Origin: Rhodospirillaceae bacterium
Lineage (GTDB): Bacteria; Pseudomonadota; Alphaproteobacteria; UBA7985
Reading direction: 5' to 3'
Length of the DNA: 40,297 nucleotides
Assembly (NCBI GenBank): GCA_002700865.1
Contig: PAFB01000141.1
Coordinates: forward strand, 1 to 40,297
Shown piece after piece: positions 14,046-34,422 of the stretch; positions within the stretch are counted from its first letter, which is position 1; each line of letters starts with the position of its first letter. The notes under the pieces were generated by a model. That model worked only from the letters and a program-made list of their open reading frames with translations. It was not told the DNA's origin and did no database searches. Position numbers and translations under genes: made by a program.

Positions 14046-15218
14046 TCAGAACTCGTAAAACGTGGTATTGCCGTGAAAGGTAATCCAACTGCGGACGAAT
14101 TGCTGATAGCTTTGCACCAAAGTCAGCTGCTGCCCCTTAAGTGCGCCCTCTGTGCACTGGCCGAAATGGTTCCACATGGACCCTGTTCCGAGGTCACGAA
14201 TACCCGCTTCAGTGCGCTCGAATTCCAGAATTTCAGCGCCATGCCTGCGGTCGTACACAAACCCGGACGTCTGGTCAGGGTCGACCAGAACGAGCAGGGC
14301 ATGGTCTCCGACTTGATCCTGCACGAGACCCCTTCCCTGCAACTGGGACCAGTCGTAGGCGCGGGCGTGCTCGCCCAAGTCGACGCCAATGACCAAAGGC
14401 GGCGAACCGACCATGTGCCAGGCGGGTTTGCTGGCCTCGTAGTTGAGCAGCTTGCCGAAGAACTCGTATCGGTGCGTGAAGGTCGGGTCATACTGCAAGA
14501 CCAGCGACTCAGGGTACTTTGTCAGCCAATTACCCAAGGTCATCTGCTCACAGGGGTAATCCTCAAGAACGCGTCCCTTCAGCGGTCCTTTTGCGGCCTC
14601 ACCGGTCTCCTGCCGCCACCAGGTACCGGTTTCACTGTCCCGGAAGGTGGCATTGAAGGAAACCGCGCCAACCAGTGTCAGCGTCAGCGGTCGGCCATCA
14701 ACCACGGTGTCATAAACCCGGCCACTCTGGCACAGGCCACAGTACGTGATCCACAGCGGCTTGTTGCCGACGGTATCGGGGATTTGGTGGTGCCAGTAGA
14801 CCATATTTGCCGGGAAGGCCTTGGCCTCGCCGTCAACGACAACCCCAATGATTTGCAGCCCAAGATCGACCTTGTTTTCAGCAGCGCCAACGAAGGTTTT
14901 CTGCGTGATCAGCGGAAACTTGATCCGGCCAACCCACCAACGATTGAACAACCAATAGACCCCCAACCAGAGCGCCAGCAGTGGCACAGCCCAGAGAACC
15001 ATGCTCAGGCGATCCGCCGCTGGGACCAGCAGCGCAGAACCAGCGATGGCCAGTCCGGCCACCACGCGCATCGCGCCAATGGTGGACCACATGAAGTAGG
15101 CGAGATCCATCTGCCAGGAAAAACGCTGCAGGACGGGCGGCGTGCCGTTGGCGCTGAGGCCCTTGATCAACTCCAAGGCAGCGATAAGCAATAGCAGGAC
15201 GACAAATACGGTAAGCAC
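14046..15218 (-). CDS. DUF3179-family membrane-anchored protein, copy 2 (CxxC)
   Basis: Colinear paralog of 3285..4460 (KGLSANGTPP, TYCGLCQSGRVYD, TGTWWRQETGEAAKG, RSWITFH). GTG start. Confidence 0.8.
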   Translation of the reverse strand: MLTVFVVLLLLIAALELIKGLSANGTPPVLQRFSWQMDLAYFMWSTIGAMRVVAGLAIAGSALLVPAADRLSMVLWAVPLLALWLGVYWLFNRWWVGRIKFPLITQKTFVGAAENKVDLGLQIIGVVVDGEAKAFPANMVYWHHQIPDTVGNKPLWITYCGLCQSGRVYDTVVDGRPLTLTLVGAVSFNATFRDSETGTWWRQETGEAAKGPLKGRVLEDYPCEQMTLGNWLTKYPESLVLQYDPTFTHRYEFFGKLLNYEASKPAWHMVGSPPLVIGVDLGEHARAYDWSQLQGRGLVQDQVGDHALLVLVDPDQTSGFVYDRRHGAEILEFERTEAGIRDLGTGSMWNHFGQCTEGALKGQQLTLVQSYQQFVRSWITFHGNTTFYEF

Positions 15219-15281
15219 TGTTGTTTCCTAGATGGTCTGGTCAAAAATCAGGATCGCAGCACCCAAGCAACGACAGTGCGA

Positions 15282-16379
15282 TCACGGACTCCGGTAGGCC
15301 TGCCCCAACTTGTTCCATAAATCGAGGAAGATTTCATCCCGCTGCACATCATAAGCTTCCCGCATCGGATGCCGGTCATCGCTTTTCGCCCAGAACAGGT
15401 CGTCCGTCAGCTTCGGCGACGTGGTCATGAAGGTGGCAACCCAGCTTGGGTTGATCAGCCAGGCGATGTTAATGATGTCCCAGATGACCCAAGTCCGCTT
15501 CTCCCTGTTGGTTATCGCGAACATGTCGTGCAGCGGATTGTGCGTGAACAGGTGAAACAGGTAGTCAGCAACGTCGCTTTGTCCCTTCACGTAATCCCGC
15601 ATTTCAGCGAACGAAATCTTGAGCTGCGCACCCACGTGATAACCGGGCAGGTAAACGTGGGGTACGCCGCAGTCGAACAGCAGCCGCGATGCGTGGACAT
15701 CTTGAACCAGATTGAGCGAAGGTCGATTGTTGTGCGGTGCGTGAGACGGGAAGGATGAGGTCCAAATCACCACAATATTCTCTCGGATATCAGGCGCTTT
15801 GAGGATGGCCGAAGCGATGTTGGTGACGCAGCCCATAGCCGCGATGTACAGCGACTGGTCGGTCTTTCGGGCGAGCTCGATAATGGTGTCAACAGCCTCG
15901 GATTCGACGATGTCGGTTTCATGGGCCATGTACCGGGTCGCCCCGCGGAATACCCGGCCCGCATGAGGTTCCTTCATCTTGTCGAAGATCGTGATGATTT
16001 CCTGATAACTCAGCTCCATACCTTCATCGGGCAAGGTGAAGTTTAGGTCTGCCGCCCGCCGTCCCTGTGCGTGCAGGCGCTCGATCCAGCCTTGGAACCC
16101 GCCCACCAAATATTCTGAATAAGCCTTGCCGCTCTCAATCGCTTGTTCGGCGGCGAGCAGGCCGGGCTTATGATGAGCGAAGGAAAACGGCTCGGCTGTC
16201 ACGGCCTCCACCGTCATATGGTCGGGCGAAAGCAATGCCCAGGCTACGGCGTATTGGTCATCAATCTCGTTCGCCGTGTCAGTATCAATAAGCAAACGCA
16301 CCGGCTGGTCTGTCGGCAGTTTCAGGCGTTCTTCGATCAGAGCTTTGGATAGGGGTTCAAAGCCTTGTTGGGCGGACAT
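15282..16379 (-). CDS. Nucleoside hydrolase (IU-NH family) with an internal insertion
   Basis: LIDTDTANEIDD Ca-binding motif, AMGCVTNIASA, NLVQD and WVIWDI. Start set at MSAQQ, immediately after the GntR stop. Confidence 0.88.
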   Translation of the reverse strand: MSAQQGFEPLSKALIEERLKLPTDQPVRLLIDTDTANEIDDQYAVAWALLSPDHMTVEAVTAEPFSFAHHKPGLLAAEQAIESGKAYSEYLVGGFQGWIERLHAQGRRAADLNFTLPDEGMELSYQEIITIFDKMKEPHAGRVFRGATRYMAHETDIVESEAVDTIIELARKTDQSLYIAAMGCVTNIASAILKAPDIRENIVVIWTSSFPSHAPHNNRPSLNLVQDVHASRLLFDCGVPHVYLPGYHVGAQLKISFAEMRDYVKGQSDVADYLFHLFTHNPLHDMFAITNREKRTWVIWDIINIAWLINPSWVATFMTTSPKLTDDLFWAKSDDRHPMREAYDVQRDEIFLDLWNKLGQAYRSP

Positions 16380-16380
16380 A

Positions 16381-17148
16381 CTACAGCTCCTGTGCGATTG
16401 GACTGGTGTGCCGAAGCTGGCGTGTCGATTGCGCAAGGTTAAAGCTCACAGACCCCATGCGAAGCACTTCTTCATGGAAGACGATTTTGCCGTCATCGTC
16501 GAAAGCCGAGCACGCTTGCTTGAGCAGCGGCTGGCCCACCGGCATGGCAAACATCTCTGCCAGCGGCGCGTCAGCCAGAATCGGGCTGATGTCCTCACAA
16601 GCCGCCGACCATGTCAGAGCGAAACGGTCACTCAGGATGCGCAGGATCGACTGATTGGGGCCAAGCTCGGGAAAATCTTCCGGGCGCGCGCCGTCGAGAT
16701 ACTGGGTTGGCGCGTAAGTTTGGACGAGCATGCTGGGCCGATTATCCACCAGCCGCAGCCGCACAACACGCGTGACCGGCAGCGCTCTCAACTCAGCAGG
16801 CAGCGCCGCAAGACTGGGGTCATCGGGTGCAAAGTGATCGATCGAAATGAACTTGGACCGCGGCTCGAGACCCGCCCGCAACATGGCGTCGGTAAAGGAC
16901 GTCAGACAGGTGTCGGAGGCTGGCGTCAGCGTGATCACCCGGTAGCCGCTACCCTGGCGGCTCTCGACGTAACCATCCTGAATCAGCATATCGAGCGCGC
17001 GTCGGATGGTTACCCGGCTCACACCGAATTGCCCGGCCAATTCCACTTCGGTCGGCACGCGTCCACCAACTGGATAATGCCCGTCTTTCAGTCGTTTGAG
17101 GATCGAGCGGTAGGTACGCTCGTACTTTGGCACGCTATCAGTTTCCAT
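16381..17148 (-). CDS. GntR-family regulator, HutC/UTRA subfamily
   Basis: YPVGGRVPTEVELAGQFGVSRVTIRRAL..L..DG..ESRQGSG HTH plus a UTRA-like C-terminal domain. Confidence 0.92.
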   Translation of the reverse strand: METDSVPKYERTYRSILKRLKDGHYPVGGRVPTEVELAGQFGVSRVTIRRALDMLIQDGYVESRQGSGYRVITLTPASDTCLTSFTDAMLRAGLEPRSKFISIDHFAPDDPSLAALPAELRALPVTRVVRLRLVDNRPSMLVQTYAPTQYLDGARPEDFPELGPNQSILRILSDRFALTWSAACEDISPILADAPLAEMFAMPVGQPLLKQACSAFDDDGKIVFHEEVLRMGSVSFNLAQSTRQLRHTSPIAQEL

Positions 17149-17195: not shown

Positions 17196-18860
17196 TTAGG
17201 TTTGTGGGTTACGCTCGGCCTTACGGAGAAGGCGTCGATTGATCTTTCCGGACGACGTCATGGGAAAATCTGTCACAAAGACAACTTCTCGGGGTGCCTT
17301 GTAACCGCCCAGCGCGTCACGGACATGGTGGCGGAGGGTGTCTGCTAGCACGGTGTCACCACTCACCCCGACGTGCAGCTTGATCAGAGCCTTGACGATG
17401 GCGCCACGGTCGGGGTCGGGCTTGCCGATCACTGCCACCTCTGCAACGGCAGAATGGGCAAGCAGGCATTCTTCGATCTCTGCCGGTCCGATACGGAAGC
17501 CTGACGACTTGATCAGGTCGTCCGACCGGCCTTTGTACCAGTAGTATCCATCGCGATCTCGGACCGCGATATCGTTGGTACGCAAAAACGCCCCAAGGCT
17601 CATTTCTGCAGTTTTTTGCGGATCACGGTAGTAGCCCAGAAAGCGGGTTGGGGAAGTGTCTGGCGTGACGATTTCGCCCTCCTCGCCCTCGGCCACTTCG
17701 TTGCCCTGAGCGTCAACCAGTCTGACATCGTGGCCGGGATAAGCCCGCCCCATGGAACCCGGCCTGCGCGGAAACAAAGCCGCGCAGTTGCCGATCAGGT
17801 GATTGACCTCGGTCATGCCGTAAAACTCATTACAGACCGCGCCCAGCCGGGTTTCCACCCATTGTAACGTTTCCGCCGCCAACGCTTCACCGCCGGTACA
17901 AATGACACGCAGGTTCAGGTCATAATGCTGATTTGGGTGCGCTGTCTGCGCCAGCCGTTTGATGGCCGTTGGTGCGAGGAAGACATGCGTGACGCGGTGC
18001 CGCTCCATGAAAGCGTAGGCCTGTTCTGCCTTGAATCGCGCCAGACTGGTTGCCACGGGGCGGCCTGCCATCCAGGCTGGAAACAGCATATCCAGCAGTC
18101 CGCCAACCCACGCCCAGTCCGAGGGTGAGTAGTAGACCGCGTCCTCGTCTTCCATCGCAAGGTTGAAGAACAGATTGATCGAAGGCGCGTATGCCGCCAG
18201 TACCCGATGCGCGTGCAAAATACCCTTGGGCTTTCCGGTCGAACCGGAGGTGTACATCAGCAGCGCTGGATCATCGCGACCTGTGTAGGCTGGCTCAAAG
18301 TCAGCCGGGGCCGGGGTTTCAAGGCTCAGCCCGAGATCGTGCTCGTCCGGCGCAGGGTCGCGGCACAGGACGTGGCGCAGATGCGGGACGTCTTCGGCAA
18401 GGCTTGCACGCAAGGGCGACCAGGCCGCATCCGTGGTCAGAATAACCGGAAGCGCACAGTCATTCATCGCGTGCTTTATGGTGTCGGGGCCGTACAACTG
18501 GGACAAGGTAACGGCAACACCACCAAGTTTACAGACTGCCATATGGGCAATACCGGTGTCAGGGGATTGGCCGGTGTGAATGCCGATCAGGGCGCCCGGT
18601 CCATACCCTAAAGCCTTGAGCTTGGCCGCCAAATTAGTCGCCGCCGCGTCAATGTCAGCGAAAGTCTGAACCTGCACGGAGCCATCTTCACGCTCATACA
18701 CCATCGCAGGCTTATCGCGGCGTTCAGGGCTCAGGTGTCGCCCGACTGTCATATGGAAAATGTTGCTCTCCGGGGCAACGGCGATCTCATAGCCCATGCC
18801 GGCTTGCCGGAGATTCATGGCGGGTAGCAGCGCTTCGGGAATGGAAAAAGATGAGGTCAT
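17196..18860 (-). CDS. AMP-forming acyl-CoA synthetase (short/medium-chain type)
   Basis: YTSGSTGKPKG, DWAWVGG, TGGEAL, EFYGMTE, GRSDDLIKSSGFRIGP.EIE and TSSGKI.R. Confidence 0.93.
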   Translation of the reverse strand: MTSSFSIPEALLPAMNLRQAGMGYEIAVAPESNIFHMTVGRHLSPERRDKPAMVYEREDGSVQVQTFADIDAAATNLAAKLKALGYGPGALIGIHTGQSPDTGIAHMAVCKLGGVAVTLSQLYGPDTIKHAMNDCALPVILTTDAAWSPLRASLAEDVPHLRHVLCRDPAPDEHDLGLSLETPAPADFEPAYTGRDDPALLMYTSGSTGKPKGILHAHRVLAAYAPSINLFFNLAMEDEDAVYYSPSDWAWVGGLLDMLFPAWMAGRPVATSLARFKAEQAYAFMERHRVTHVFLAPTAIKRLAQTAHPNQHYDLNLRVICTGGEALAAETLQWVETRLGAVCNEFYGMTEVNHLIGNCAALFPRRPGSMGRAYPGHDVRLVDAQGNEVAEGEEGEIVTPDTSPTRFLGYYRDPQKTAEMSLGAFLRTNDIAVRDRDGYYWYKGRSDDLIKSSGFRIGPAEIEECLLAHSAVAEVAVIGKPDPDRGAIVKALIKLHVGVSGDTVLADTLRHHVRDALGGYKAPREVVFVTDFPMTSSGKINRRLLRKAERNPQT

Positions 18861-19225
18861 GCTGTGTCCTCCAACCCTAAAACCAGCCGCGGCGGGTCAC
18901 TGGCCTGCAACACAAGGGGAGACTGGGCCACAGTCGCCGTGGATTGCAGGGCAACGGTGGTCAGTCCGTCAGCGCCGTCAAACTGGGCAAGGGCAAAGTC
19001 GCCGTCGAGCCCGCTGGTCCGGGTTATCACTGTCGCCCTACCGGACAAGATCACCCACTCACCCTCTGCACTGCCGCACGTGCACGTCCGCAAGGGTGGA
19101 AAGCTGACCCGCCCACAGGCTGCGCACACCCGCGCGACCGCCCGACCTTGAGTGAGCCCTTCGACAAAGGGCGATAGCCAGCCAGCCTTCAGGTCATATT
19201 CCAGTGGCAGATGAACCGTTGTCAT
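18857..19225 (-). CDS. DUF35 Zn-ribbon/OB-fold protein (thiolase partner)
   Basis: CAACGRVSFPP..CTCG zinc ribbon followed by W..LSG.ATV. 4-nt overlaps with both neighbours. Confidence 0.85.
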   Translation of the reverse strand: MTTVHLPLEYDLKAGWLSPFVEGLTQGRAVARVCAACGRVSFPPLRTCTCGSAEGEWVILSGRATVITRTSGLDGDFALAQFDGADGLTTVALQSTATVAQSPLVLQASDPPRLVLGLEDTA

Positions 19226-20394
19226 AGCCCCCCCGACCGTCTCAAAATCGTGACTGCCGCAGTGGTACAGACCCCGCCGTGCGTGTCAGCAAGGGCGTAC
19301 TCAGGCGGGACTGAAGGCTGAAGCGCTCCGTGATAGCGTCCTTCGAGAAGGCGCGCTGCCGTGGCGACTTGTGCAACGCCAATCGCACCGGCGGGCGCGC
19401 CCTGTCCCATCAGGCCACCCGAGAGGTTTATGGGGCAGCGCCCATCGGGGGCAAAAGCGCCTGAGCTCAGGTCCTGATCTACCTGCTCACTCAGACCCAA
19501 GGCTGCGACGGCTTGCAGTTGAGCACCGGCATAGGCGTCGTAGACTTCAGCCGCTCCGATTGCCTGCGGGTGGATGCCAGCAGCATCACAAGCGCGTTTC
19601 ATAGCCCGCTGCTTGGCCGCAAACGACCCCGGTTCCGACCGCGCACCAAGGTGCATGTGATCCGTCGCAGCGCCGATACCAACAACCTGCGGCGCGGTTT
19701 TTCGCGGGGCAGCTTTCGCATGGGAGAGGATCAATGCAGCAGCACCATCGGACAGCGGCGAGCAGTGCAATCGGCGGTACGGGCTGGCCACCAGCGGACT
19801 GGCATCAATGGCGTCTGCATCATCCTTTCGCGGCAAGTGTGCGTCCGGGTTGGAACAGGCATTGGTGCGGTTCTGCTGGGTGACGTGCGCGAGGTGCCTT
19901 GGTCCAAGGCCTTGTTCAGCGGAGAAATGCTGCCACGACAAGGCGTAGAGCGCCGTCGCGGTCAAACCGGTCATGCCATCGGTCCAGTTGTCGAAAGAGA
20001 ACCCATAAAGCGACCGGATTTTGTCACCGGGGAGGCCAGAAGCCGAGGCATCCAGACCGATCACCGCTGCGTGGCTGATCAGGCCGCTCTGGATCGCCAA
20101 GGTTGCCATCTGAACCGCCGACTGCCCCGAACAGCCCCCGCTTTCACAGCGGACAACAGCCGCGCCGGTCAGTCCCAATTCGCTGGCAAGGATCGATGCA
20201 GGATTAAGCTGCAGGGCGAAAAAGTCGCTTTCGCTGGCTAGGTAAAGCGCCTCAATCTGGTCGGTTTCAACGCCCGCCATCGCCACTGCGTCTGCAAAGG
20301 CCAGCATCGCCCAGTCGCGGGGTCCCGTACCATCTTTGCGCCGGTTGAATGGCGTTTGCGCCGCACCGGTAACGACAACTTGAGGGTCCCACAT
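19222..20394 (-). CDS. Thiolase-fold protein (SCP2/Ltp2-like) with non-canonical catalytic motifs
   Basis: VVTGAAQTPF, NA..NPDAH, SPLSDGAAALIL, AEVYDAY and INLSGGL. Start set at MWDPQ with GAGGAG RBS. Confidence 0.88.
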   Translation of the reverse strand: MWDPQVVVTGAAQTPFNRRKDGTGPRDWAMLAFADAVAMAGVETDQIEALYLASESDFFALQLNPASILASELGLTGAAVVRCESGGCSGQSAVQMATLAIQSGLISHAAVIGLDASASGLPGDKIRSLYGFSFDNWTDGMTGLTATALYALSWQHFSAEQGLGPRHLAHVTQQNRTNACSNPDAHLPRKDDADAIDASPLVASPYRRLHCSPLSDGAAALILSHAKAAPRKTAPQVVGIGAATDHMHLGARSEPGSFAAKQRAMKRACDAAGIHPQAIGAAEVYDAYAGAQLQAVAALGLSEQVDQDLSSGAFAPDGRCPINLSGGLMGQGAPAGAIGVAQVATAARLLEGRYHGALQPSVPPEYALADTHGGVCTTAAVTILRRSGGL

Positions 20395-20447
20395 GTCGGT
20401 CTGCTGATCTCCTCGCTCAAGGCAGCCTTTTGCGCCTGATGAACAGA

Positions 20448-20467
20448 ACTTATTTGTATTTACAAGT
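20448..20467. promoter_or_regulatory. Palindromic operator TTGTA-tt-TACAA, probable GntR/HutC site
   Basis: ACTTATTTGTATTTACAAGT between the divergent thiolase and MFS starts; 16/20 match to the core of the 34391 repeat. Confidence 0.65.
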
Positions 20468-20512
20468 TGCTGGCATATCAATAGCTCATCTGTGCTCTTC
20501 GTAGGATTCAAG

Positions 20513-21691
20513 ATGAGGTTTTGGCGTTACCTGACCGCCGTTGTTATGGGATTTGGTGCCGGTGCGCTTTATGGCTGGAGCGCTCTGGCGGCGCCGCTGC
20601 AGCAGGCCTTTGATGTTCGGACGGCTGAGATCGGTATGGTGTTTTCGATCGCTCTGGTCAGCTTTACTGTCGCCGTCCTGCTCGCGCCTGCGTTCACCCG
20701 CCTGATGGGGTCAGACCGAGTGCTTGCCGTGGGGGCTTTGGCGGCGGCGCTGTGTACGACACTCGCAGCCTTCGCCCCCAACTTTGCGCTGTTTGTTGCC
20801 CTCTTCAGCGTCGGCTTTGGGACCGCCAGCGGACTGCTTTATTCCACGGTCCTAACGATTGCAGCTCAGAGCCCAAGGCCCCAACTCGTCACCCCGATGT
20901 TTGTTACGGTCTTTGGATTGGGCGGCGTTGTTTTCGGGCCCGTTTGGAAAATCCTGGCTGCTGCCGATTGGGGGCTGACGGCGCTACTGCCTCTGTCGGC
21001 GCTTTTACTTATCGCCAGCCTGCTGGCTTGGTTTACGGGCAACAGAAAGACAGTTGACGGCGTTCAGGTCAAACAGAGCACAACCGATTCAGTTTCCGCT
21101 TCTGCTTCTGCTTCTGTTTCCGCTCCTGCCAAGTCGGCCACGCCGGGCCAGTTGCTGCACATCTGGTTGATCTTTGCCAGCGGCGCTTTTGCCGGTCTTA
21201 TGGTGCTGGGGCTAGCAGCAGAGATAATCGAAGCGGGCCCCTCGACCCTGTTCCTGACCAGCGCCGTACTCGCGGGCGTTGCCTTGGCCAATACAACGGG
21301 GCGCTTGTCTGGCGCGGCCTTTGGCAAGGCGGCTGACAGTCCCCTGAATGGTCTCCACGTCTCAGCCCTGATCACCCTCGTCGGGCTCACCACCGTGCTG
21401 TTGGCCCCTCAAGGGCTGGCGGTGGGGATTGGTCTGGTCCTGATCGCTGGCGGCTACGGCTTGCTGGCCTCAACAATCACCATGCTGACAGCCCGGCAAA
21501 CCCGGCCCGCTGATTTCCAACGGCATTTTGGATTGGTCTTTACCGCGTGGGGCGCGGCAGGGTTCGTCGCCCCGTGGCTAAGCGGCATCATTTTCGACCG
21601 GTACGGAGATTTCAGCTTGGCTTACCTTATCGCCGTGTCGACGACGGTGGCCTTGGCGCTGCTGGTCTGGGGATTCAGGCGGCGGCTTTAA
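20513..21691 (+). CDS. MFS transporter (OFA/monocarboxylate-like)
   Basis: About 12 hydrophobic segments, GALYGWS, GFGTASGLLY, ANTTGRL and FTAWG.AG..AP. Ser/Ala-rich central loop. Confidence 0.85.
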   Translation: MRFWRYLTAVVMGFGAGALYGWSALAAPLQQAFDVRTAEIGMVFSIALVSFTVAVLLAPAFTRLMGSDRVLAVGALAAALCTTLAAFAPNFALFVALFSVGFGTASGLLYSTVLTIAAQSPRPQLVTPMFVTVFGLGGVVFGPVWKILAAADWGLTALLPLSALLLIASLLAWFTGNRKTVDGVQVKQSTTDSVSASASASVSAPAKSATPGQLLHIWLIFASGAFAGLMVLGLAAEIIEAGPSTLFLTSAVLAGVALANTTGRLSGAAFGKAADSPLNGLHVSALITLVGLTTVLLAPQGLAVGIGLVLIAGGYGLLASTITMLTARQTRPADFQRHFGLVFTAWGAAGFVAPWLSGIIFDRYGDFSLAYLIAVSTTVALALLVWGFRRRL

Positions 21692-23612: not shown

Positions 23613-24130
23613 GGAGCCTCCCTATTCGCAAACAGCTTCAGAAGCTCAGCGACGGAGGTGGCACCGGCGTCAACATGCCCGACTCCCGCCCCTTCGACAT
23701 ATTTTGCGCGCCCCCGCCGAGCCGCCATCGCCCGAGTCGCCTCACAGCCAGCTTGAGCAGCAGTCGCCGCTTCACCAAGGGTCGCACACGCTGCCGCTGG
23801 GATGAGCGCATCAAGCATGGTTTTGTCGCCGGCTTTAGCCTGCCCGAGCATTGAAATCCGCTGGACCGCCTTACCCAAGGCTTCAGCAACGGAACCGCCG
23901 GCTTCGATATGAACGAGCGCGTCGATTACCTGCGCGAACAACATGCCGGATGCACCGCCCGCCGCCTTGCGAAAGGCCGTGCCGGGCTCTTCATCCGCCT
24001 GAGCCGCAGCGCGTAGCCCCTTGGCCATGGTTGCCCCGTGATCACCGTCGCCGGTCGCTGCATCCAGCCGGTTCAGCGTCGCCTCCAGCGCCTCAAAGTG
24101 CGCGACTGCTGCTCGCAATGCCGCGCTCAT
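23609..24130 (-). CDS. DhaL-family (DAK2) nucleotide-binding subunit
   Basis: LDAATGDGDHG, GGASGMLF, GDKTMLDAL, ARRGRAKY and DAGA. Confidence 0.92.
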   Translation of the reverse strand: MSAALRAAVAHFEALEATLNRLDAATGDGDHGATMAKGLRAAAQADEEPGTAFRKAAGGASGMLFAQVIDALVHIEAGGSVAEALGKAVQRISMLGQAKAGDKTMLDALIPAAACATLGEAATAAQAGCEATRAMAARRGRAKYVEGAGVGHVDAGATSVAELLKLFANREAP

Positions 24131-28041: not shown

Positions 28042-28929
28042 TCACACACGTCCAAAGCCACCCGCAGCGCTGGACTCACCCGACAGGTAGCGTGACGTCA
28101 CGAGCAGGATCAGGATGGCCGGCGCGATGAACACCAGCGAAATCGCCGCAATCATGGCGTTGTTGCCGCTACCTGCCGCTGAGAACAATAAAGCCGGCAG
28201 CGTGACCACGCGGCCCTGTCCAATCAGGAAGGTGAGCAGGTATTGGCTCCACGACACTAGGAACGCAAACAGCGCAGCAACGAACAGACCGGGGAGAATC
28301 GCCGGCAGCGTGACATCCCAGAATATCCGCCAAGGCGGAGCACCCAGACTGCGCGCCTGCGCTTCGTAGTCGGCATCATAGTTGGCGAAAACCCCGCTGA
28401 GCGTCAGCACCACGTAGGGCATCACCGGCACGAGATGCACCAGGGAAACACCGAACACACTGCCGGCAAGATCAATGGGAATGCCCGCGTTCATCAGCGC
28501 CATGTCCCAGCGAATGAAATTGATGTTCAGACCAAGGCTGAAAGCGATGGGCGGCACGATCGTCGGGGCGATAATCATAAACTCGACGATCTTCTTTCCC
28601 CGGAAGCGATACAAACCAAGCGCGCGGGCAGCGGGCAGACCGATGATCACCGACGTTCCCGTCACCAGCGTTCCGATAGCCAGACTCAGCCACAGCGCAG
28701 AAATGACGTCCGGCACGCCAGTCCAGAGATCGATAAAGCTCTCCAGCGTGCGGTCGCCTGGACGCGGGATCAACTTCAGCCGAACCCAAGCCTGCAGGCT
28801 CCATTCCTTCGGCACCAATTGCGGGTAGAACCAGCGATAGGCGAAGGCGTTGATCATGAACGATATGACCGGCGCGAGGAAAGCGATGCTGATGGCGATG
28901 ACGGCAGCGTAGAAGGGAACACGTCTCAT
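28042..28929 (-). CDS. ABC transporter permease 2
   Basis: Multiple TM segments, EAA loop YEAQARSLGA and SWSQY..T.LIG.G. Confidence 0.92.
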   Translation of the reverse strand: MRRVPFYAAVIAISIAFLAPVISFMINAFAYRWFYPQLVPKEWSLQAWVRLKLIPRPGDRTLESFIDLWTGVPDVISALWLSLAIGTLVTGTSVIIGLPAARALGLYRFRGKKIVEFMIIAPTIVPPIAFSLGLNINFIRWDMALMNAGIPIDLAGSVFGVSLVHLVPVMPYVVLTLSGVFANYDADYEAQARSLGAPPWRIFWDVTLPAILPGLFVAALFAFLVSWSQYLLTFLIGQGRVVTLPALLFSAAGSGNNAMIAAISLVFIAPAILILLVTSRYLSGESSAAGGFGRV

Positions 28930-28933
28930 CGGC

Positions 28934-29809
28934 TCAATCCTTCCGCACTGTGCGGGCGGTGATATACATGTAGATGAAGATCAGGACGAGCACGATAAAC
29001 GCGATAATCATGCTCAGCGCCATGCCTTCAGCCCGGGCATTGAGATCGGGGTTGAGGAAGAAGTCCAGTGACATGACCGGGAGCATCTTGGGATAGCCGA
29101 CCCCCAATATCCGCGGCACCTCGTAACTGCCAAAGGTAAAGGCAAAGACGATGATGGATGCCGACATGAGGCCCGGCATGATCAGCGGCAGTGTCACTGT
29201 CCTGAAACGCTGCCAGCGGTTGGCGCCAAGGCTTTGAGCAACCGCCTCGTAATCCTCGCCCAAGGATTGCAGGATCGCCAAAACGATGATGCCGAAGAAG
29301 GCAACTTCCTTCCAGATGTAAGCCAGAATGATCCCGATCCCGTAGGCATCTTTGGTAAGCGCTGGAAAATCGCGCGGCGACGTTACCAGCCCGAGCTCAC
29401 CCAGCATCCGCGAAACCAGACCGCTCTGGCTGAACAGCATGATCATACCGACCGCGATCACCAGATGCGGGATCGGCAGGTTCAGCTGGAAGAAAAACAC
29501 CGCCAGTTTCTTGCCAAAGAACGTGCGCCGCAGCAGCAGAGCCACGAAAATCGCAATCGCAGCGGAAACAAAAGTCGAGCAAAAGGCGACCCACAGGCTC
29601 AAGGTCAGGCCGGACCAGAAGCGGCCGGAGAATTCTTCAGAAAACATGACGCGCAGATAGGCGTCGAAATTGATGTCAGTGGCACCGATGTTCGGATTGT
29701 AGCCAAGGCTCTGCAGGAATCCGTAGAGCAAGGAACCAAAGAACAGAATGCTGATGACGAGCAGCGTCGGTGCCAGCATCACCGCTATTCGGATACGTTC
29801 CCACTTCAT
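28934..29809 (-). CDS. ABC transporter permease 1
   Basis: Multiple TM segments, WKEVAF, EAA loop YEAVAQSLGA and FGSYEVP. Confidence 0.92.
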   Translation of the reverse strand: MKWERIRIAVMLAPTLLVISILFFGSLLYGFLQSLGYNPNIGATDINFDAYLRVMFSEEFSGRFWSGLTLSLWVAFCSTFVSAAIAIFVALLLRRTFFGKKLAVFFFQLNLPIPHLVIAVGMIMLFSQSGLVSRMLGELGLVTSPRDFPALTKDAYGIGIILAYIWKEVAFFGIIVLAILQSLGEDYEAVAQSLGANRWQRFRTVTLPLIMPGLMSASIIVFAFTFGSYEVPRILGVGYPKMLPVMSLDFFLNPDLNARAEGMALSMIIAFIVLVLIFIYMYITARTVRKD

Positions 29810-29910: not shown

Positions 29911-31197
29911 TTACTCGGGCAGTGGCTCGCCGCGCAGGACGTACTTCTGCCAGTCTTCCTCGATCAGGTTCTGGTACTCACCCGCGATATCAGCCACCAG
30001 CGCACCGGACAAACGAGCTGGGTCAGCCGCAGCGTCGCCCAGGTTCATCATTGCGGTTTCGATGGCTGCAATCTGGTCAGCATCCGTGACACGGGAAACG
30101 TCAATTGCCCAGCCACAGCAGAACCCGTTCGCAGGCTGCACCTGCGCTGCCTGACGATCAGGCCGCAGAACCAGGTTCGCCGTCACCAGTGCTGCCGCTT
30201 TGTTCGGAGCGTTGTATGGGATGGCGAGGTAGTTGAAGTCACCGATCATGTAGTTGTCGAAGCTGAAGGCACGGGACGTCGGTGCAATCACACCGGCACC
30301 AATGTCCGGACCAGCCCCGGCAGGCGACTGGGTAAAGGCAAACTCAACCTCTCCATTCGCAAACAGGCTCTTAAAGTCTGCGTTGCTCTCAGGGTAGGTG
30401 TTGCCTTCGCGCCAGAGGTTTGGCTCCCACGAAATCAGCTCTTTCCATGTTGCCATGCTCCACTGGTCGTAAAGCTCCTGATTGAACGGGCCGACCCACT
30501 GTTCGTGGTTGCCAGACAGTTCGAACATCAGCTGCTTGACAAAGCGGGTCCCGATGAAGTTCCCGGGTCCGGGCGCAACGTAGCTGAATTGGCCCGGGTT
30601 GGCAGCGATCCAGTCCCCGAGTTCCGCGTAAGAACGCGGCAGCTCAGAGTCGCTGAGGCGTGCGCTGTCGTACATGAAGTGGAACTGCGCGCTGGACCAA
30701 GGGCTTTCCATGCCCTCAACCGGCTTGCCAAAGTCGAGGTTAATCGCAGGGTTCCCCCAATCAACCAGCGCCGAGTTTGGAATGCTCTCAGCCCATGGAC
30801 CGTAGAGCAGGCCAGCCTGCTGCATGGTTTTGAAGTTCTCACCGTTGATCCAGATCATATCGACTGAACCCGCGTCGCCATCGGCGCCGGCTTCTTTCTC
30901 AGAAATCACCTGGTTCACGGCATCCACGGTCCCGGCGAGCGGCACGCGCTCAAGGTTGATGCCGTATTCTTCCTTCAGTGGGTCGCCGTAGAATGTATCC
31001 ACGAAGCCGTTGATGGCATCCGAGCCACCCCACATGTACCAATAGACAGTCTGACCGCGGGCTTCCTCCAGCACCTGGTCCCAGCTGTCATAGCCTGGCG
31101 GGGACTCTGCATGAGCATGCACCCCGATTGCGCTGACTGCGGACAGCAGCGCGACTTGGATTGTTCTTTTCAATGAAATCACTTTTCGAACTCCCAT
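29911..31197 (-). CDS. ABC substrate-binding protein, YnjB-like
   Basis: Signal peptide ending AHA, ARGQTVYWYMWGGS..IN, GSVDMIWINGENF, ESPW..AQ and LAIPYNAPNK..A..AN. Confidence 0.85.
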   Translation of the reverse strand: MGVRKVISLKRTIQVALLSAVSAIGVHAHAESPPGYDSWDQVLEEARGQTVYWYMWGGSDAINGFVDTFYGDPLKEEYGINLERVPLAGTVDAVNQVISEKEAGADGDAGSVDMIWINGENFKTMQQAGLLYGPWAESIPNSALVDWGNPAINLDFGKPVEGMESPWSSAQFHFMYDSARLSDSELPRSYAELGDWIAANPGQFSYVAPGPGNFIGTRFVKQLMFELSGNHEQWVGPFNQELYDQWSMATWKELISWEPNLWREGNTYPESNADFKSLFANGEVEFAFTQSPAGAGPDIGAGVIAPTSRAFSFDNYMIGDFNYLAIPYNAPNKAAALVTANLVLRPDRQAAQVQPANGFCCGWAIDVSRVTDADQIAAIETAMMNLGDAAADPARLSGALVADIAGEYQNLIEEDWQKYVLRGEPLPE

Positions 31198-31220: not shown

Positions 31221-32669
31221 TTAGACATTGACCCCGTCGATTTGGACGTGATCGGCGTAAGGTACGGGTTGGAGAAGCTGCATTCCGGTCCAGGCAGCGA
31301 GTTCCATGAGCTCGCTGCTCATGTCCCCCTGACCCATGGCGAAATGATGCTGGACCCCTCTGACCGTCAGGGTGTTAATCAACGCCCAAACGTCGATTTT
31401 CTGGCCATTCATGGTCAGGTTGGAGACCCAGCCTCGGGTCCCGTCAAAGCCCGCGTCAGGGTGATCAACAACCTCGGACCCGAGAACCAGCAGTTGCTTG
31501 GCGTCCTCGTTCAGGTAGCTGATCGTGACAGGCTGAGGGGCGAAGATCTGGTCGCCCGAGACCCCGTAAGGCCCATCAGTGCCGTTGCGGCCCAGCGTGA
31601 CGTGATCCACCCACGCGATGCCATCCTCGTTAGCAAAGTGTCGAGGGGTCACACCGCAGTGCCACATTTGCACGGCCTGTCGCTCAGGATCGAGTGAAGC
31701 CAGATCGAGCAGCGTCGAAGACCCTTCTTTGCCCGAAATCAGGTTCAGCATGTACATGCTGATCGCGCCAAGAACGTCGCCTTCACAGGAAACCGGGAAG
31801 TTGTGATCGCTGCCGAGCCAGCTGTAAGCCATACAGGGAGCAATGTTGTAGAGTTCTTGAATGGTCGACCAGCACTGGACCGCCATCGTGTCGAGTTGCA
31901 TCTCCTGCGAGGTATCCAGCAGCGCAAGGTAAAACCGCGTCACCCGCTCGAAAGACCCGGGATCGGAAAGCACGACCTCGCGCGCTGCGCCCCGGATCAT
32001 TTCCGCCGCCGTTGCGACCCGGCCTGAGTCCATGGCCTCGGCGCGCTTGACGATAGCGGCGAGGTCCATTTGTTCGATGGTCAGTCCAAGGTTGGTCTGC
32101 ATGGCCGCTTCATCCGGCAGCATCCCGTCAAAACCCGGTGAGACACCACCGATCCAGCCGACGCGCGCCGCCCGCAAATTCTTCTCAGCCCGAACCGCCT
32201 TAACCGTCACGGTGAAACGGTTGGAAAATTTCTCCTGATCCGGGTTGCCATAGAACCACTTGAAGGGAATATCGCGATCCTTGAAGTAGCTCTTTATCAG
32301 GCTTGCGTAGTGGCTCATCGACACCATGGAATGCAGCTGAACCGGTCCGGAACTTTGCGGGTCAGGGACCGACCAGAGCCCTAGCTTCGGCGCAGCGTCG
32401 ATAAAGGGATGTAGCTGCTCGCCCATGGCACAGGCGGCGGTTTGGATCAGCAGAAAATCAACCCCGGCAGCTTTGATTTCCCGCGCAGCTTCCTCGGCAT
32501 GCTCCAAAGAGTGGATGGGCCGTTCTACCGCGATCAGATCGAAATCAAGTTCCTGAGCATAGCCCCTGAGCGCTGCAACCGCATTTTCACGCACCCGGTA
32601 CTTCTCGGCGAAGTACGGTGTGATCGACACGCCGACGTATCCAACCCTTAGACGGTGCCGTGCACTCAT
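31221..32669 (-). CDS. L-fucose/L-arabinose isomerase-fold aldose-ketose isomerase
   Basis: AVQCW, PC, SCEGDVLG (metal ligands), MWHCG and C-terminal QHHF. Confidence 0.82.
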   Translation of the reverse strand: MSARHRLRVGYVGVSITPYFAEKYRVRENAVAALRGYAQELDFDLIAVERPIHSLEHAEEAAREIKAAGVDFLLIQTAACAMGEQLHPFIDAAPKLGLWSVPDPQSSGPVQLHSMVSMSHYASLIKSYFKDRDIPFKWFYGNPDQEKFSNRFTVTVKAVRAEKNLRAARVGWIGGVSPGFDGMLPDEAAMQTNLGLTIEQMDLAAIVKRAEAMDSGRVATAAEMIRGAAREVVLSDPGSFERVTRFYLALLDTSQEMQLDTMAVQCWSTIQELYNIAPCMAYSWLGSDHNFPVSCEGDVLGAISMYMLNLISGKEGSSTLLDLASLDPERQAVQMWHCGVTPRHFANEDGIAWVDHVTLGRNGTDGPYGVSGDQIFAPQPVTISYLNEDAKQLLVLGSEVVDHPDAGFDGTRGWVSNLTMNGQKIDVWALINTLTVRGVQHHFAMGQGDMSSELMELAAWTGMQLLQPVPYADHVQIDGVNV

Positions 32670-32756: not shown

Positions 32757-32788
32757 AATTGCAATGACTAATTTGTAGTAACTTATTT
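32757..32788. promoter_or_regulatory. 32-bp regulatory repeat, copy A (upstream of the isomerase operon)
   Basis: AATTGCAATGACTAATTTGTAGTAACTTATTT, 29/32 identical to 34391-34422; contains GT-N4-AC. Confidence 0.75.
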
Positions 32789-32916
32789 TTCCAAGAACGA
32801 GCATTTCTACTCCGATGCCTCTCTAATAATCAGGCTGCTAAAACATTGAAAATTCGCGTCTTTTCACATTTCTTGGCGGATGCGTCAGTGCACCCCTTGC
32901 GTCGAAGCACTCCGGG

Positions 32917-34338
32917 TTAGGCGTAGCCGGCGATGGACTTGAGTTCGAGGTACTCATCAATGCCCCATTCACCCTGCTCCCGGCCGTTTCCAGACTGCTT
33001 ATAGCCGCCAAAGGGAGCATAAGCGGACCACTCGGCCCCATTGATCCAAATGGCGCCCGCACGCATTTGCTGAGCCACCCGCCGCGCCCGTTCCAGCGAG
33101 CCGGACTGCACGTATCCCGCGAGGCCGTAGACCGTGTCGTTAGCGATCTCGATTGCCTCTGCTTCGTCACCGTAACCAATGATGGATAGCACGGGGCCAA
33201 AGATTTCTTCGCGGGCGATTGCCATATCGTTGGTGACATCGCCGAACACGGTCGGGCGGATGTAGTACCCGCGATTGAGCCCAGCAGGCCGCCCGACGCC
33301 ACCGGTAACCAGCGTCGCCCCTTCGTCGATCCCCGCCTGGATCAGGCTTTGGATGTGATTGAACTGCCGCTCGTTGACCACTGGCCCCATAGACACGTCC
33401 GTCATCGGATCACCCACCGTGTAGGTCTCCGCAGCCTCACCGGCGAGGGCTTTGGCTTCCTCCATCCGATCCGCTGGAACAAGCAGACGCGACGGCGAAC
33501 GACAGGACTGGCCCACGTTAACAAAGCACCAGTCCACGCCGTCCCGCACCGCTTGTTCCAGATCGGCATCGGGGAGGATGATGTTGGGCGACTTGCCGCC
33601 CAATTCTTGGGAAACACGCTTGACTGTTTCTGCAGCGGCCCGCGCAACGGCAATTCCGGCACGCGTTGACCCCGTAATCGACACCATGTCCACATCCGGG
33701 TGTCGCGCCAGCGCTTCACCGGCGACATGCCCGTAGCCGGTCAGATGGTTGTACACCCCCGGCTGAAACCCCGCCTCGTGCACCAGTTCAGCAAAGCGCA
33801 GGGACGACCGAGGCGAGAATTCTGAAGGCTTGGCGATCATGGTACAGCCAGCCGCGAGCGCGGGCACGACTTTGAGCACCAACTGGTTCATCGGCCAGTT
33901 CCACGGGGTGATGAGCGCACAGACGCCGATAGGCTCCTTCGACAACAGCGTATCACCACGACGCTCCTCAAACGGCATGGTTTCGAGGAAATGAATCAAG
34001 GCTTCAAAGTGCTCGGCACCGATCCAGGCCTGCGTCGAGAGTGAAAAAGCCTGCGTTGACCCCATTTCCTCGACCATCAAGGCGGCGATTTCATCAAAGG
34101 CCTCATTATAGAGCGCGTGGAGTATGCGCAGTAAGCGGATGCGTTCGGCTCGTGTGGTCTGAGAAAATGCCGGAAAAGCCGCCTTTGCCGCTGCGACCGC
34201 AGCGTTAACGTCGTGCTCGTTACCCATGGGGATTTTGCAGATTTCTGCCTCAGAAGCCGGGTTGATCAGCGCGTGGGCCTCACTGCCAACAGGCCGAACC
34301 CATTCTCCGTTGATGTAGAACTTCCCAATGTTTTGCAT
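32917..34338 (-). CDS. NAD(P)-dependent aldehyde dehydrogenase
   Basis: ITPWNWP, KPSE, ITGSTRAG, ELGGKS, GQSC, EEIFGP and PFGGYKQSG. ATG 34338 has GGAGG 7 nt upstream (alternative start GTG 34344). Confidence 0.95.
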   Translation of the reverse strand: MQNIGKFYINGEWVRPVGSEAHALINPASEAEICKIPMGNEHDVNAAVAAAKAAFPAFSQTTRAERIRLLRILHALYNEAFDEIAALMVEEMGSTQAFSLSTQAWIGAEHFEALIHFLETMPFEERRGDTLLSKEPIGVCALITPWNWPMNQLVLKVVPALAAGCTMIAKPSEFSPRSSLRFAELVHEAGFQPGVYNHLTGYGHVAGEALARHPDVDMVSITGSTRAGIAVARAAAETVKRVSQELGGKSPNIILPDADLEQAVRDGVDWCFVNVGQSCRSPSRLLVPADRMEEAKALAGEAAETYTVGDPMTDVSMGPVVNERQFNHIQSLIQAGIDEGATLVTGGVGRPAGLNRGYYIRPTVFGDVTNDMAIAREEIFGPVLSIIGYGDEAEAIEIANDTVYGLAGYVQSGSLERARRVAQQMRAGAIWINGAEWSAYAPFGGYKQSGNGREQGEWGIDEYLELKSIAGYA

Positions 34339-34390
34339 GTCCACCCCTCCGCCGAACCTGCGAGAGGTTCAGACTATGGGTTAGGGGATA

Positions 34391-34422
34391 AATTGCAACG
34401 ACTAATTTGTATTAACATATTT
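34391..34422. promoter_or_regulatory. 32-bp regulatory repeat, copy B (upstream of ALDH)
   Basis: AATTGCAACGACTAATTTGTATTAACATATTT; same orientation relative to its downstream gene as copy A. Confidence 0.75.

Follow-up and report, generated by a model that had tools for sequence, protein, structure and literature searches.

A candidate regulon joining ketose-1-phosphate enzymes to a coenzyme A module in a Rhodospirillaceae bacterium

Gene content and organization of the locus

We examined a stretch of about 20 kb (positions 14046-34422) on contig PAFB01000141.1 of assembly GCA_002700865.1, from a Rhodospirillaceae bacterium, in which genes for sugar catabolism lie beside genes for reactions on coenzyme A (CoA). 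All positions refer to the window, by which we mean the whole 40,297-nt stretch of DNA that was analysed. An initial annotation had proposed an undescribed pathway here, with furanoside import, ketose-1-phosphate cleavage and CoA-dependent processing. Genes were identified from a list of open reading frames (ORFs), profile searches of Pfam and NCBIfam, PDB sequence searches and fold searches of structural models. Every gene named in that annotation was found at the place it had given (ORFs, Pfam and NCBIfam). The genes and candidate regulatory sites are as follows:

14046-15218, minus strand: DUF3179 membrane protein with N-terminal hydrophobic helices and a CxxC motif (Pfam)
15282-16436 (ORF; probable start ATG 16379), minus strand: IU-NH-like hydrolase, cytoplasmic (Pfam 58 bits, cut-off 34)
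16381-17148, minus strand: GntR/HutC-type regulator with a UTRA domain (Pfam, NCBIfam)
17196-18860, minus strand: short/medium-chain acyl-CoA ligase, AMP-forming (Pfam)
18857-19225, minus strand: DUF35 partner protein, ChsH2-type zinc ribbon (Pfam zf-ChsH2)
19222-20511 (ORF; likely start 20394), minus strand: thiolase-fold protein (alignments to 7yvy, 6esq and 7pxp)
20439-20458, minus strand: candidate operator box C, between the divergent thiolase-like and major facilitator superfamily (MFS) genes
20492-21691, plus strand: MFS carboxylate transporter, oxalate/formate-lactate family (Pfam; NCBIfam SfMCT 128 bits, below the cut-off of 320)
21675-22571, minus strand: class I aldolase, LacD/DeoC type (PRK12858 249 bits, cut-off 184)
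22575-23612, minus strand: DhaK subunit (Pfam Dak1 314 bits)
23609-24130, minus strand: DhaL nucleotide-binding subunit (Pfam Dak2 87 bits; NCBIfam)
24127-24963, minus strand: ketose 3-epimerase-like TIM barrel (Pfam; D-psicose 3-epimerase 216 bits, below the cut-off of 300)
24973-26022, minus strand: ATP-binding cassette (ABC) transporter ATPase (Pfam, NCBIfam)
26019-27974, minus strand: glycoside hydrolase family 51 (GH51) glycosidase with an N-terminal CBM4_9-like extension (Pfam, NCBIfam, PDB)
28042-28929 and 28934-29809, minus strand: two ABC permeases of the PotB/C, PhnU, ModB kind (Pfam, NCBIfam)
29911-31197, minus strand: exported substrate-binding protein (SBP), YnjB family (PRK11622 397 bits, cut-off 203)
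31221-32669, minus strand: putative aldose-ketose isomerase, AraA/FucI fold (model fold; NCBIfam SftI 142 bits, below the cut-off of 700)
32757-32777, minus strand: candidate operator box A, upstream of the isomerase operon
32917-34344, minus strand: NAD(P)-dependent aldehyde dehydrogenase (ALDH; Pfam 505 bits, every NCBIfam match below its cut-off)
34391-34411, minus strand: candidate operator box B, upstream of ALDH
34434-36035, minus strand: GMC flavoprotein, choline-dehydrogenase-like (Pfam, NCBIfam), beyond the region covered by the initial annotation

The genes form three minus-strand units. The first runs from the thiolase-fold protein through DUF35, the ligase, the GntR/UTRA regulator and the IU-NH-like hydrolase to DUF3179. 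The second begins with the isomerase and continues with the binding protein, the two permeases, GH51, the ATPase, the epimerase-like protein, DhaL and DhaK, ending at the LacD-type aldolase; the third is the ALDH gene alone. The MFS gene is transcribed away from the thiolase unit and towards the sugar unit. Five gene pairs overlap by 4 nt (thiolase/DUF35, DUF35/ligase, DhaK/DhaL, DhaL/epimerase and ATPase/GH51), and the coordinates bear out the annotated arrangement of three units, a divergent MFS gene and short overlaps.

The thiolase-fold protein and its DUF35 partner

In PDB searches the thiolase-fold protein scored 133 and 99 bits against the archaeal DUF35-associated thiolases 7yvy and 6esq, 73 bits against BbsB and 37 bits against the steroid side-chain aldolase Ltp2 (6ok1). 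In ESM Atlas it matched only generic "thiolase family" clusters. The annotated thiolase step is contradicted by the active site, from which the catalytic Cys and both His have been lost. When the protein is aligned to 7yvy, 6esq and 7pxp, the position of the nucleophilic Cys (in the C-x-S-G segment) is occupied by Gly, with a Cys one residue later, and the consensus of a 52-sequence family alignment reads EGGGATG at this segment, without any Cys. The HDCF-type motif is VYDAY in the window protein and LYDSY in the family, so that His is replaced by Tyr, and the G-H-P motif reads GAP in both, with Ala in place of His. These replacement residues (Tyr and GAP) are at least 90% conserved in the 52 sequences.

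According to the portion of PMC12329534 available, SCP2 thiolases carry HDCF, while two DUF35-bound retro-aldolases have YDHF, with Tyr294 as base (TcLtp2), or YDCY, with Tyr302 as base and Cys304 as acid (CtSal). The Tyr that replaces the HDCF His in Ltp2 and Sal is present in the window protein and in the family consensus. A DUF35 gene of the zf-ChsH2 type lies alongside and overlaps by 4 nt, and DUF35 is found in 45 of the 51 loci with a thiolase-like gene that are described below; the homolog in one of these (L021) has both zf-ChsH2 and OB_ChsH2_C domains. The likeness does not clearly extend to the second catalytic residue: Sal uses Cys and Ltp2 the motif His together with Tyr344, whereas the position of the motif Cys or His, equivalent to Cys304 of CtSal, holds Ala here and Ser in the consensus of the family, which is not Sal-like. 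The loss of the thiolase residues and the presence of a Y-D-x-Y motif like that of Ltp2 and Sal suggest that the protein is probably a lyase that acts on an acyl-CoA by way of a thioester enolate, and not a thiolase.

Sugar-side enzymes and importer

None of the 527 isomerase homologs has an informative name, and a PDB sequence search with the isomerase gave nothing at E <= 0.01. Its structural model (predicted local distance difference test, pLDDT, 81) matched L-arabinose isomerases with Foldseek template modelling (TM) scores of 0.73-0.76 and FucI with scores of 0.71-0.73, which places it by fold of the model in the AraA/FucI superfamily. It belongs to none of the named equivalogs AraA, FucI and SftI, its only NCBIfam match being the sulfoquinovose (SQ) isomerase SftI at 142 bits against a cut-off of 700; the Pfam match to FucI_N2 is below cut-off. 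A distant second isomerase subtype, 24-29% identical to that of the window, fills the place of the isomerase in the operons of three genomes, G002, G115 and G295 (L092 3709-5094, L098 12254-13630 and L101 8175-9566).

The kinase genes DhaK and DhaL are adjacent and score above the cut-offs for Dak1 and Dak2; DhaK is proposed to phosphorylate the C1 hydroxyl of the ketose, or alternatively a triose. The aldolase scores above its family cut-off and, in PDB searches, 179 bits against LacD and 35 bits against YihT-type chains. Its Schiff-base lysine motif DVLKVEVP and an upstream Glu align with 3kao, and we take Lys205 and Glu163 to be the residues with these roles. Family scans of the window ORFs found neither an FGGY kinase nor a class II metal aldolase. 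The families found fit the initial annotation's logic of an isomerase, a C1-kinase, a class I aldolase and an ALDH.

The GH51 enzyme is a clear family member with both catalytic and C-terminal domains. It matches the Thermotoga arabinofuranosidase 3ug3 at 258 bits over residues 207-646 and Alpha-L-AF_C at 73 bits; against the ArfA equivalog it scores 246 bits, with a cut-off of 625. No signal peptide was seen in its translation. The binding protein gave nothing at E <= 0.01 in a PDB sequence search, and the nearest folds to its model (pLDDT 83.6) are of the PhnS/PotD/FutA type, with TM scores of at most 0.63 and no ligand clue. The importer is therefore of a YnjB/PotD/PhnS-like kind and not a classical sugar importer. 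The annotated "furanoside import" depends on GH51, which occurs at only 15 of the 80 loci compared below, and is not borne out by this importer type. Some Chloroflexota loci (L014, L015, L025 and similar ones) have the YnjB-type SBP, with or without the ATPase, and no matching permeases nearby; an Opp/Dpp-type ABC system, with SBP_bac_5 in 24 loci, lies divergently upstream.

Other enzymes of the CoA module

The best NCBIfam match of the ligase is the acetate-CoA ligase PRK04319 (364 bits, below the cut-off of 729). Its PDB matches are 9g79 (235 bits), MacS 3etc (200 bits) and the 4-hydroxybutyrate-CoA ligase 8biq (188 bits), so that by sequence its nearest group appears to be the short/medium-chain enzymes resembling acetyl-CoA synthetase (ACS). 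The CoA-transferase that takes the place of the ligase in Chloroflexota is closest to succinate-glutarate, mesaconate and formyl-CoA transferases, all below cut-offs. The IU-NH-like protein has weak PDB matches to nucleoside hydrolases and carries the aspartate motif DTDTANEIDD, lengthened by two residues relative to DxDxxxDD, which we take to be the canonical N-terminal calcium/ribose motif. Orthologs of the MFS transporter hold the same position in L001, L003, L089-L091 and L099. The GMC flavoprotein is a probable associate of the system, homologs of 53-90% identity being found beside it in L001, L002, L091 and L099. Membership of DUF3179 is doubtful: a homolog lies near the isomerase at one of the 80 loci (L078) and at none of L089-L092.

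Linkage of the sugar and CoA modules across genomes

The isomerase was taken as the most diagnostic gene for a search of other loci. In about 185,579 species genomes 145 relatives of it were found, and we compared 80 loci, with 10-kb flanks, by tblastn and ORF clustering. Thirteen of these are from alphaproteobacterial metagenome-assembled genomes (MAGs); the remainder are nearly all from Chloroflexota (Anaerolineae), with one locus each from Trueperaceae and Fraserbacteria. The thiolase-like gene is present at 51 of the 80, DUF35 at 45, DhaK at 65, DhaL at 49, the same SBP at 51, the IU-NH-like gene at 42, the LacD aldolase at 47 and ALDH at 20. Thiolase-like gene, DUF35 and DhaK are adjacent at 47 of the 51 loci that have the first of these.

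In Chloroflexota the isomerase stands in a single operon with the thiolase-like gene and the sugar genes. The L021 operon, for example, contains thiolase-like gene, DUF35, DhaK, DhaL, isomerase, SBP, two permeases and ATPase, followed by CoA-transferase III, IU-NH, ALDH, LacD aldolase and GH51. A family III CoA-transferase replaces the ligase at 36 of the 80 loci, none of them alphaproteobacterial; the CoA-activating step has thus been swapped by non-orthologous replacement. Among the 46 non-alphaproteobacterial loci with full 10-kb flanks, 39 have the thiolase-like gene, and the CoA-transferase (26), IU-NH (33), LacD aldolase (32) and ALDH (13) are confined to these 39, with none at the other seven.

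All five alphaproteobacterial genomes with a sugar operon that were tested have the thiolase-like gene (55-73% identical). In three of them it abuts the sugar operon, starting just past the 10-kb flank. At E <= 1e-60 the gene was found in 4 of 400 other Alphaproteobacteria, sampled across the class. The gene order in Dinoroseobacter is aldolase and MFS, then thiolase-like gene, DUF35, ligase, ALDH, GntR and IU-NH; in Bauldia it is GMC and MFS, then thiolase-like gene, DUF35, GntR and IU-NH, then the sugar operon. IU-NH orthologs come after GntR in L089, L090 and L091, and another ALDH lies inside the CoA operon in Dinoroseobacter and in genome G295. Besides that of the window, five alphaproteobacterial genomes have the modules adjacent or fused. 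In G115 and in G295 genes of both modules are mixed within one operon, and each of the two has the epimerase; G307 and G162 have ligase, thiolase-like gene and DUF35 with no sugar genes within the compared stretches.

We conclude that the sugar and CoA modules are one functional system. Their co-occurrence, the absence of which the initial annotation had itself named as an observation that would refute its claim, is seen in two phyla with the CoA-activating enzyme swapped. The core consists of isomerase, DhaKL and SBP, and a frequent module comprises thiolase-like gene, DUF35, CoA activation, IU-NH and LacD aldolase, sometimes with ALDH and an organic-acid MFS. GH51 (15 of 80 loci), the epimerase (6) and DUF3179 are accessory, as are PNP/UDP-type proteins (15), ADP-ribosylglycohydrolase (7), aldo-keto reductase (AKR; 7) and GH42 (6); the 3-epimerase and DUF3179, which had been counted as pathway members, are not core. 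At the Fraserbacteria locus further genes come after those of the transporter (L051 5561-8821). They encode an ADP-ribosylglycohydrolase, a protein of the PNP/UDP type, a 128-aa protein assigned to no family, and a relative of phosphotriesterases that resembles phospho-furanose lactonases.

Operator boxes and regulation

A 21-mer, TACAAATTAGTC[A/G]TTGCAATT, occurs at 32757-32777 and 34391-34411, before the second and third units, where none was expected from 100 shuffles. At 20439-20458, where the thiolase-like gene and the MFS gene diverge, there is a weaker relative, so that the annotated operator box is present before every unit, twice as the 21-mer and once in the weaker form. A degenerate pattern of the three sites finds, in the 2.32-Mb assembly, only these sites and one match with two mismatches on another contig, and the reversed pattern finds none; since the pattern was built from the three sites themselves, this genome-wide test is partly circular. 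The boxes are also conserved upstream of orthologous operons in other genera: box A is kept in L001, L003 and L013 and is degenerate in L005 and L012, box B is kept in L001, and box C in L089 (Dinoroseobacter) and L091 (Bauldia).

The GntR/UTRA regulator is a candidate for the protein that binds these boxes. Its gene is next to IU-NH in L089-L091 and lies within the operons of G115 and G295. A regulator of the ROK family with a winged-helix domain, encoded at 12812-14020 convergently with DUF3179, is another candidate box binder.

Proposed pathway

Enzyme sequences that run from isomerase through ketose-1-kinase to aldolase serve sugars whose terminal carbon cannot be phosphorylated, such as fucose, rhamnose, sulfoquinovose and 5-deoxyribose. 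We propose that the locus is one regulon for the degradation of a sugar of this class, with its far end blocked, and put the probability of this reading at roughly 0.5. The substrates, the order of the steps, the promoters bound by the regulator and the chemistry of the last step are our inference. The YnjB-type ABC system would import the sugar or its glycoside, and cytoplasmic hydrolases would release the aldose: the IU-NH-like enzyme and, in the window, GH51, or enzymes of the PNP/UDP, ADP-ribosylglycohydrolase or GH42 type in other carriers. The AraA-fold isomerase would then give the 2-ketose, with inversion at C3 by the epimerase where present, and DhaK/DhaL would phosphorylate the hydroxyl beside the carbonyl. 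Cleavage by the LacD-type class I aldolase would produce dihydroxyacetone phosphate (DHAP) and a small aldehyde that retains the blocking group. ALDH would turn this aldehyde into a short (hydroxy)acid, which the MFS protein could also carry across the membrane, comparable to the export of sulfolactate or of dihydroxypropanesulfonate described for sulfoglycolysis in the portion of PMC12890257 available. A CoA thioester would be made by the short-chain ligase, or by the family III CoA-transferase in Chloroflexota, and the DUF35-bound thiolase-fold enzyme would cleave it via a thioester enolate, with no covalent Cys intermediate. A retro-aldol reaction as in Ltp2 and Sal seems the most likely chemistry, with beta-elimination and decarboxylation as alternatives. 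The GntR/UTRA protein would probably govern all three units through the common box.

Both deoC and ribokinase score above family cut-offs in all five complete Chloroflexota carriers tested. These canonical enzymes would make a route for plain ribose or deoxyribose redundant, which weakens those sugars as substrates and favours a modified, end-blocked sugar.

Several observations weigh against this proposal. Seven Chloroflexota loci have only isomerase, DhaKL and SBP. Four genomes (G711-G714) have an operon of isomerase, ABC, GH51 and aldolase, and the thiolase-like gene was not found in them at E <= 1e-20; their DhaK is elsewhere in the genome, and the GntR gene there has as neighbours an acetate/propionate-type kinase and a fused MaoC hydratase/phosphotransacylase. 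The CoA step would then be a frequent add-on and not obligatory, so that of the annotated CoA module the linkage to the sugar module stands and its necessity does not. The Ala or Ser at the Sal Cys position leaves the lyase chemistry insecure. A retro-aldolase requires a 3-hydroxyacyl-CoA, and a pentose or a 6-deoxyhexose would yield an aldehyde that does not lead to one. The DhaK enzymes are best known as triose kinases, and the kinase could therefore act after cleavage and not before it, while ALDH lies within 10 kb at only 20 of the 80 loci. Hints about configuration also conflict, with IU-NH, PNP/UDP and ADP-ribosylglycohydrolase pointing to ribosides and GH51, GH42, the AraA fold and LacD to L-arabino or D-galacto sugars; an end-blocked sugar is favoured as a class only.

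A variant locus (L008 17650-21093, also L009 and L011) contains LacD aldolase, isomerase, ABC, GH51, GntR, the acetate/propionate-type kinase and the fused MaoC hydratase/phosphotransacylase. Here DhaKL is not in the locus and the thiolase-like gene is not in the genome.

A wider claim, of which we would be surprised to see every part hold, is that the "waste" aldehyde left by ketose-1-phosphate cleavage is here, for the first time in a sugar route, mineralised completely on CoA, by a new clade of Cys-less thiolase-fold lyases. The clade would be marked by Y-D-S/A-Y, bind DUF35 and act on a small hydrophilic acyl-CoA, and the substrate would be an end-substituted furanose of marine ecological weight. 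Conceivable substrates are 5-deoxy or 5-thio pentoses derived from S-adenosylmethionine (SAM), the galactose units with 6-substituents in algal glycans, and arsenosugars. The lyase would either take off the substituent or break the carbon chain, and carriers without CoA genes would export the acid by MFS, permitting cross-feeding. As regards arsenosugars, none of the window ORFs scanned was of an ars type. Two other substrates were considered. A carnitine or betaine-aldehyde route, suggested by the CaiB-like transferase, an ALDH like betaine-aldehyde dehydrogenase and the choline-dehydrogenase-like GMC protein, was dropped because it gives the sugar genes no role and because the carnitine CoA-transferase model was only sixth of the seven family III models matched. 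A hexuronate route with a tartronyl-CoA decarboxylase would be conceivable, but no uronate-specific gene was seen.

Comparison with known pathways

The pathways for L-fucose and L-rhamnose, and that for D-arabinose in E. coli, follow the same logic: an aldose is isomerized to a 2-ketose, phosphorylated at C1 and cleaved to DHAP and a short aldehyde, which is oxidised by lactaldehyde or glycolaldehyde dehydrogenase. The AraA/FucI fold of the isomerase is a further likeness. Fucose and rhamnose catabolism, however, use an FGGY kinase and a class II aldolase, and this pair is missing here; the window has DhaK/DhaL and a class I LacD-type aldolase instead, with additional steps of CoA activation and thiolase-fold chemistry and a different kind of importer. 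A ribulose-1-phosphate route in haloarchaea and synthetic xylulose-1-phosphate routes share the logic of DHAP plus glycolaldehyde and are not known to have a CoA lyase. The apiose pathways of Carter et al. (2018) reportedly have no CoA lyase either.

The sulfoglycolytic Embden-Meyerhof-Parnas routes sulfo-EMP and sulfo-EMP2 (YihS/V/T or SqvD/SqiK/SqiA, a sulfolactaldehyde dehydrogenase and a sulfonate exporter) also pass an end-blocked sugar through a ketose 1-phosphate, according to the part of PMC12890257 available, in which no SQ route with DhaKL or a thiolase-fold enzyme is listed. They resemble our locus in having a class I aldolase of the same superfamily, an ALDH and, for the acid, an MFS protein, and SftI, the sole NCBIfam match of the isomerase, is an SQ isomerase. 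The locus differs from them in the low SftI score (142 against 700) and in the preference of its aldolase for LacD (179 bits) over the YihT type (35 bits). Family scans found no GH31 sulfoquinovosidase in the window, and there is no equivalog-level SQ isomerase, kinase or aldolase.

The DHAP shunt for 5'-deoxynucleosides (Pfs/MtnP, MtnK, MtnA and Ald2, or DrdK/I/A) likewise uses a nucleosidase and converts an end-blocked pentose through a ketose 1-phosphate to DHAP and an aldehyde. In the shunt phosphorylation of the aldose comes first, the isomerase is of the MtnA type and the aldolase belongs to class II. The shunt differs from our system in this order and in its families, none of which is in the window, and it has no CoA module. 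Growth on exogenous substrates of the shunt is reported in the available portions of PMC10986504 and PMC12632272.

On the CoA side, the steroid side-chain aldolases Ltp2-ChsH2(DUF35) and Sal-Shy(DUF35), as far as the available part of their description goes, likewise have a thiolase fold without nucleophile, Tyr at the HDCF equivalent, a DUF35 partner encoded alongside and a preceding CoA activation. The similarity is low (37 bits to 6ok1 against 133 to an archaeal thiolase), and in the window no hydratase, acyl-CoA dehydrogenase or steroid genes are nearby, the context being sugar catabolism. The deoxyribonate route of Klebsiella michiganensis (Price et al. 2019, PMC6365646, in the portion available) also converts a sugar-derived hydroxy acid to a CoA ester that is cleaved within the thiolase superfamily. 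That route, as described there, oxidises C3 first and uses a true thiolase, whereas here there is no 3-hydroxyacyl-CoA dehydrogenase and the thiolase residues are lost.

No described pathway of this composition was found in the full-text literature searched, in agreement with the initial annotation; nor did literature on DUF35/DhaK, glycolyl-CoA, CoA esters of sugar acids, IU-NH-like glycosidases or DhaKL/LacD/AraA clusters contain a matching pathway. The pathway may be a variant of ketose-1-phosphate catabolism with an enzyme clade of possibly new chemistry. It would give the scheme of isomerase, ketose-1-kinase and aldolase for end-blocked sugars a new ending, and would give thiolase-fold lyases like Ltp2 and Sal their first role outside steroids. 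A function would also follow for the YnjB-type binding proteins, so far uncharacterised, and for an isomerase family that has more than 500 sequences and no name.

Alternative explanations

The gene content could also be explained by two parallel branches for nucleoside sugars that share a kinase. Ribose would pass through isomerase, DhaKL and LacD aldolase to DHAP and glycolaldehyde, while 2-deoxyribose would be oxidised by ALDH or GMC to deoxyribonate, activated to deoxyribonyl-CoA and split by a thiolase-fold retro-aldol reaction to acetyl-CoA and D-glyceraldehyde, which DhaKL would phosphorylate. Deoxyribonate is a true 3-hydroxy acid and would suit a retro-aldolase, and the position of thiolase-like gene and DUF35 beside DhaK at 47 of 51 loci is expected if the product feeds a triose kinase. 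Riboside-hydrolase-type families recur (IU-NH at 42, PNP/UDP at 15 and ADP-ribosylglycohydrolase at 7 of the 80 loci), and an organic-acid MFS lies beside the CoA-transferase at 30. However, canonical deoC and ribokinase are kept in all five complete carriers tested, GH51 and GH42 would have no role, the isomerase has the AraA fold, LacD types suit tagatose-like stereochemistry and not ribulose, and the SBP is unlike known nucleoside binders. The rarity of the isomerase (145 of about 185,579 species genomes) would be odd for a universal substrate, and we think two such branches unlikely, even with a CoA-dependent deoxyribonate route through CoA synthetase, 3-hydroxyacyl-CoA dehydrogenase and thiolase proposed for Klebsiella in the available part of PMC6365646. 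Somewhat less likely again is a non-orthologous DHAP shunt for exogenous by-products of SAM (5'-deoxyadenosine and methylthioadenosine, or 5-deoxyribose and methylthioribose), in which nucleosidase, isomerase, ketose-1-kinase and class I aldolase would give DHAP and acetaldehyde or (methylthio)acetaldehyde, and the resulting acid would become a CoA ester. Such a shunt has the same end-blocked-sugar logic and would fit the riboside hydrolase types and the acetate-CoA ligase as best family for the ligase. Three classical activation routes for short acids occur among the carriers (ACS-like ligase, CoA-transferase, and AckA with Pta in L008), and some loci have an aldehyde reductase (AKR or beta-hydroxyacid dehydrogenase), as known shunts do. 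Acetyl-CoA, though, requires no dedicated lyase, and we know of no thiolase-fold enzyme lacking the Cys that acts on (methylthio)acetyl-CoA. MtnK, MtnA and a class II aldolase were not found among the locus genes scanned, and GH51, GH42 and the AraA fold argue against ribose. Growth of E. coli on 5'-deoxynucleosides, as published in the portions available of PMC10986504 and PMC12632272, speaks for such substrates.

The order of the modules might instead be reversed, with a 3-hydroxy acid or sugar acid imported by MFS, converted to a CoA ester and split by the thiolase-fold aldolase, after which the freed aldose or triose would be isomerized, phosphorylated by DhaKL and cleaved by the LacD aldolase. 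The conserved string of thiolase-like gene, DUF35, DhaK, DhaL and isomerase, the co-location of carboxylate transporters with CoA genes, and the common promoter region and box of the MFS gene and the thiolase unit all agree with this. We nevertheless consider it quite improbable: the seven loci with isomerase, DhaKL and SBP and no CoA gene, together with the four genomes without the thiolase-like gene, indicate that the sugar part works alone, the SBP and glycosidases favour a sugar as entry point, and no natural acid that fits can be named. That unrelated pathways merely lie side by side, or that the thiolase-like/DUF35 pair is an inactive or scaffolding remnant, is very improbable. Linkage spans Alphaproteobacteria, Chloroflexota and a Fraserbacteria MAG with differing gene orders and a swapped CoA-activating enzyme; CoA-transferase, IU-NH, aldolase and ALDH are strictly nested within loci that have the thiolase-like gene; and the Tyr and GAP residues, conserved at 90% or more in the 52 sequences, argue for selection on a new active site. 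These points stand against the only partial match of the thiolase-promoter box to the other two, the occurrence of ligase, thiolase-like gene and DUF35 in G307 and G162 apart from sugar genes in the compared stretches, the missing thiolase-like gene in G711-G714 and the loss of all canonical thiolase catalytic residues.

Distribution and expression

The system is uncommon and scattered in its occurrence; among 300 other Chloroflexota, evenly sampled, it was found in one. The carriers retrieved are all titled as MAGs. Judged by record titles and run labels, they are Anaerolineae and marine Alphaproteobacteria sampled from sponges, the sea and sludge, so that the substrate of the proposed end-blocked-sugar pathway may be a real item of marine or necromass carbon flow. 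DNA of the window recurs in runs from 11 studies, nearly all labelled marine. In one marine RNA library (X20), contigs of 99% identity or higher match the ligase, thiolase-like, permease, SBP, isomerase and ALDH genes and cover 25 of 30 bins. RNA libraries may contain DNA, and these contigs are therefore a weak hint of expression only; the five bins without them are no evidence of silence, and a second RNA library (X21) covered almost none of the stretch and is uninformative.

Other genes of the window

Divergent from the GMC gene lies an enolase-superfamily gene (MR/MLE) resembling sugar-acid dehydratases, with a gene for a DAO-type flavoprotein after it (36162-38658). A second DUF3179 gene on the plus strand (3285-4460) adjoins a second GMC oxidoreductase (4502-6118) and an SdsA-type alkyl sulfatase (6115-7983); a GMC gene is thus paired with DUF3179 at one side of the window, and about 20 kb separate DUF3179 from the other GMC gene. 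A truncated ORF at the edge of the window (3-581) has weak sulfotransferase matches below Pfam cut-offs. The enolase-family gene beside GMC is also retained in L001 and L002.

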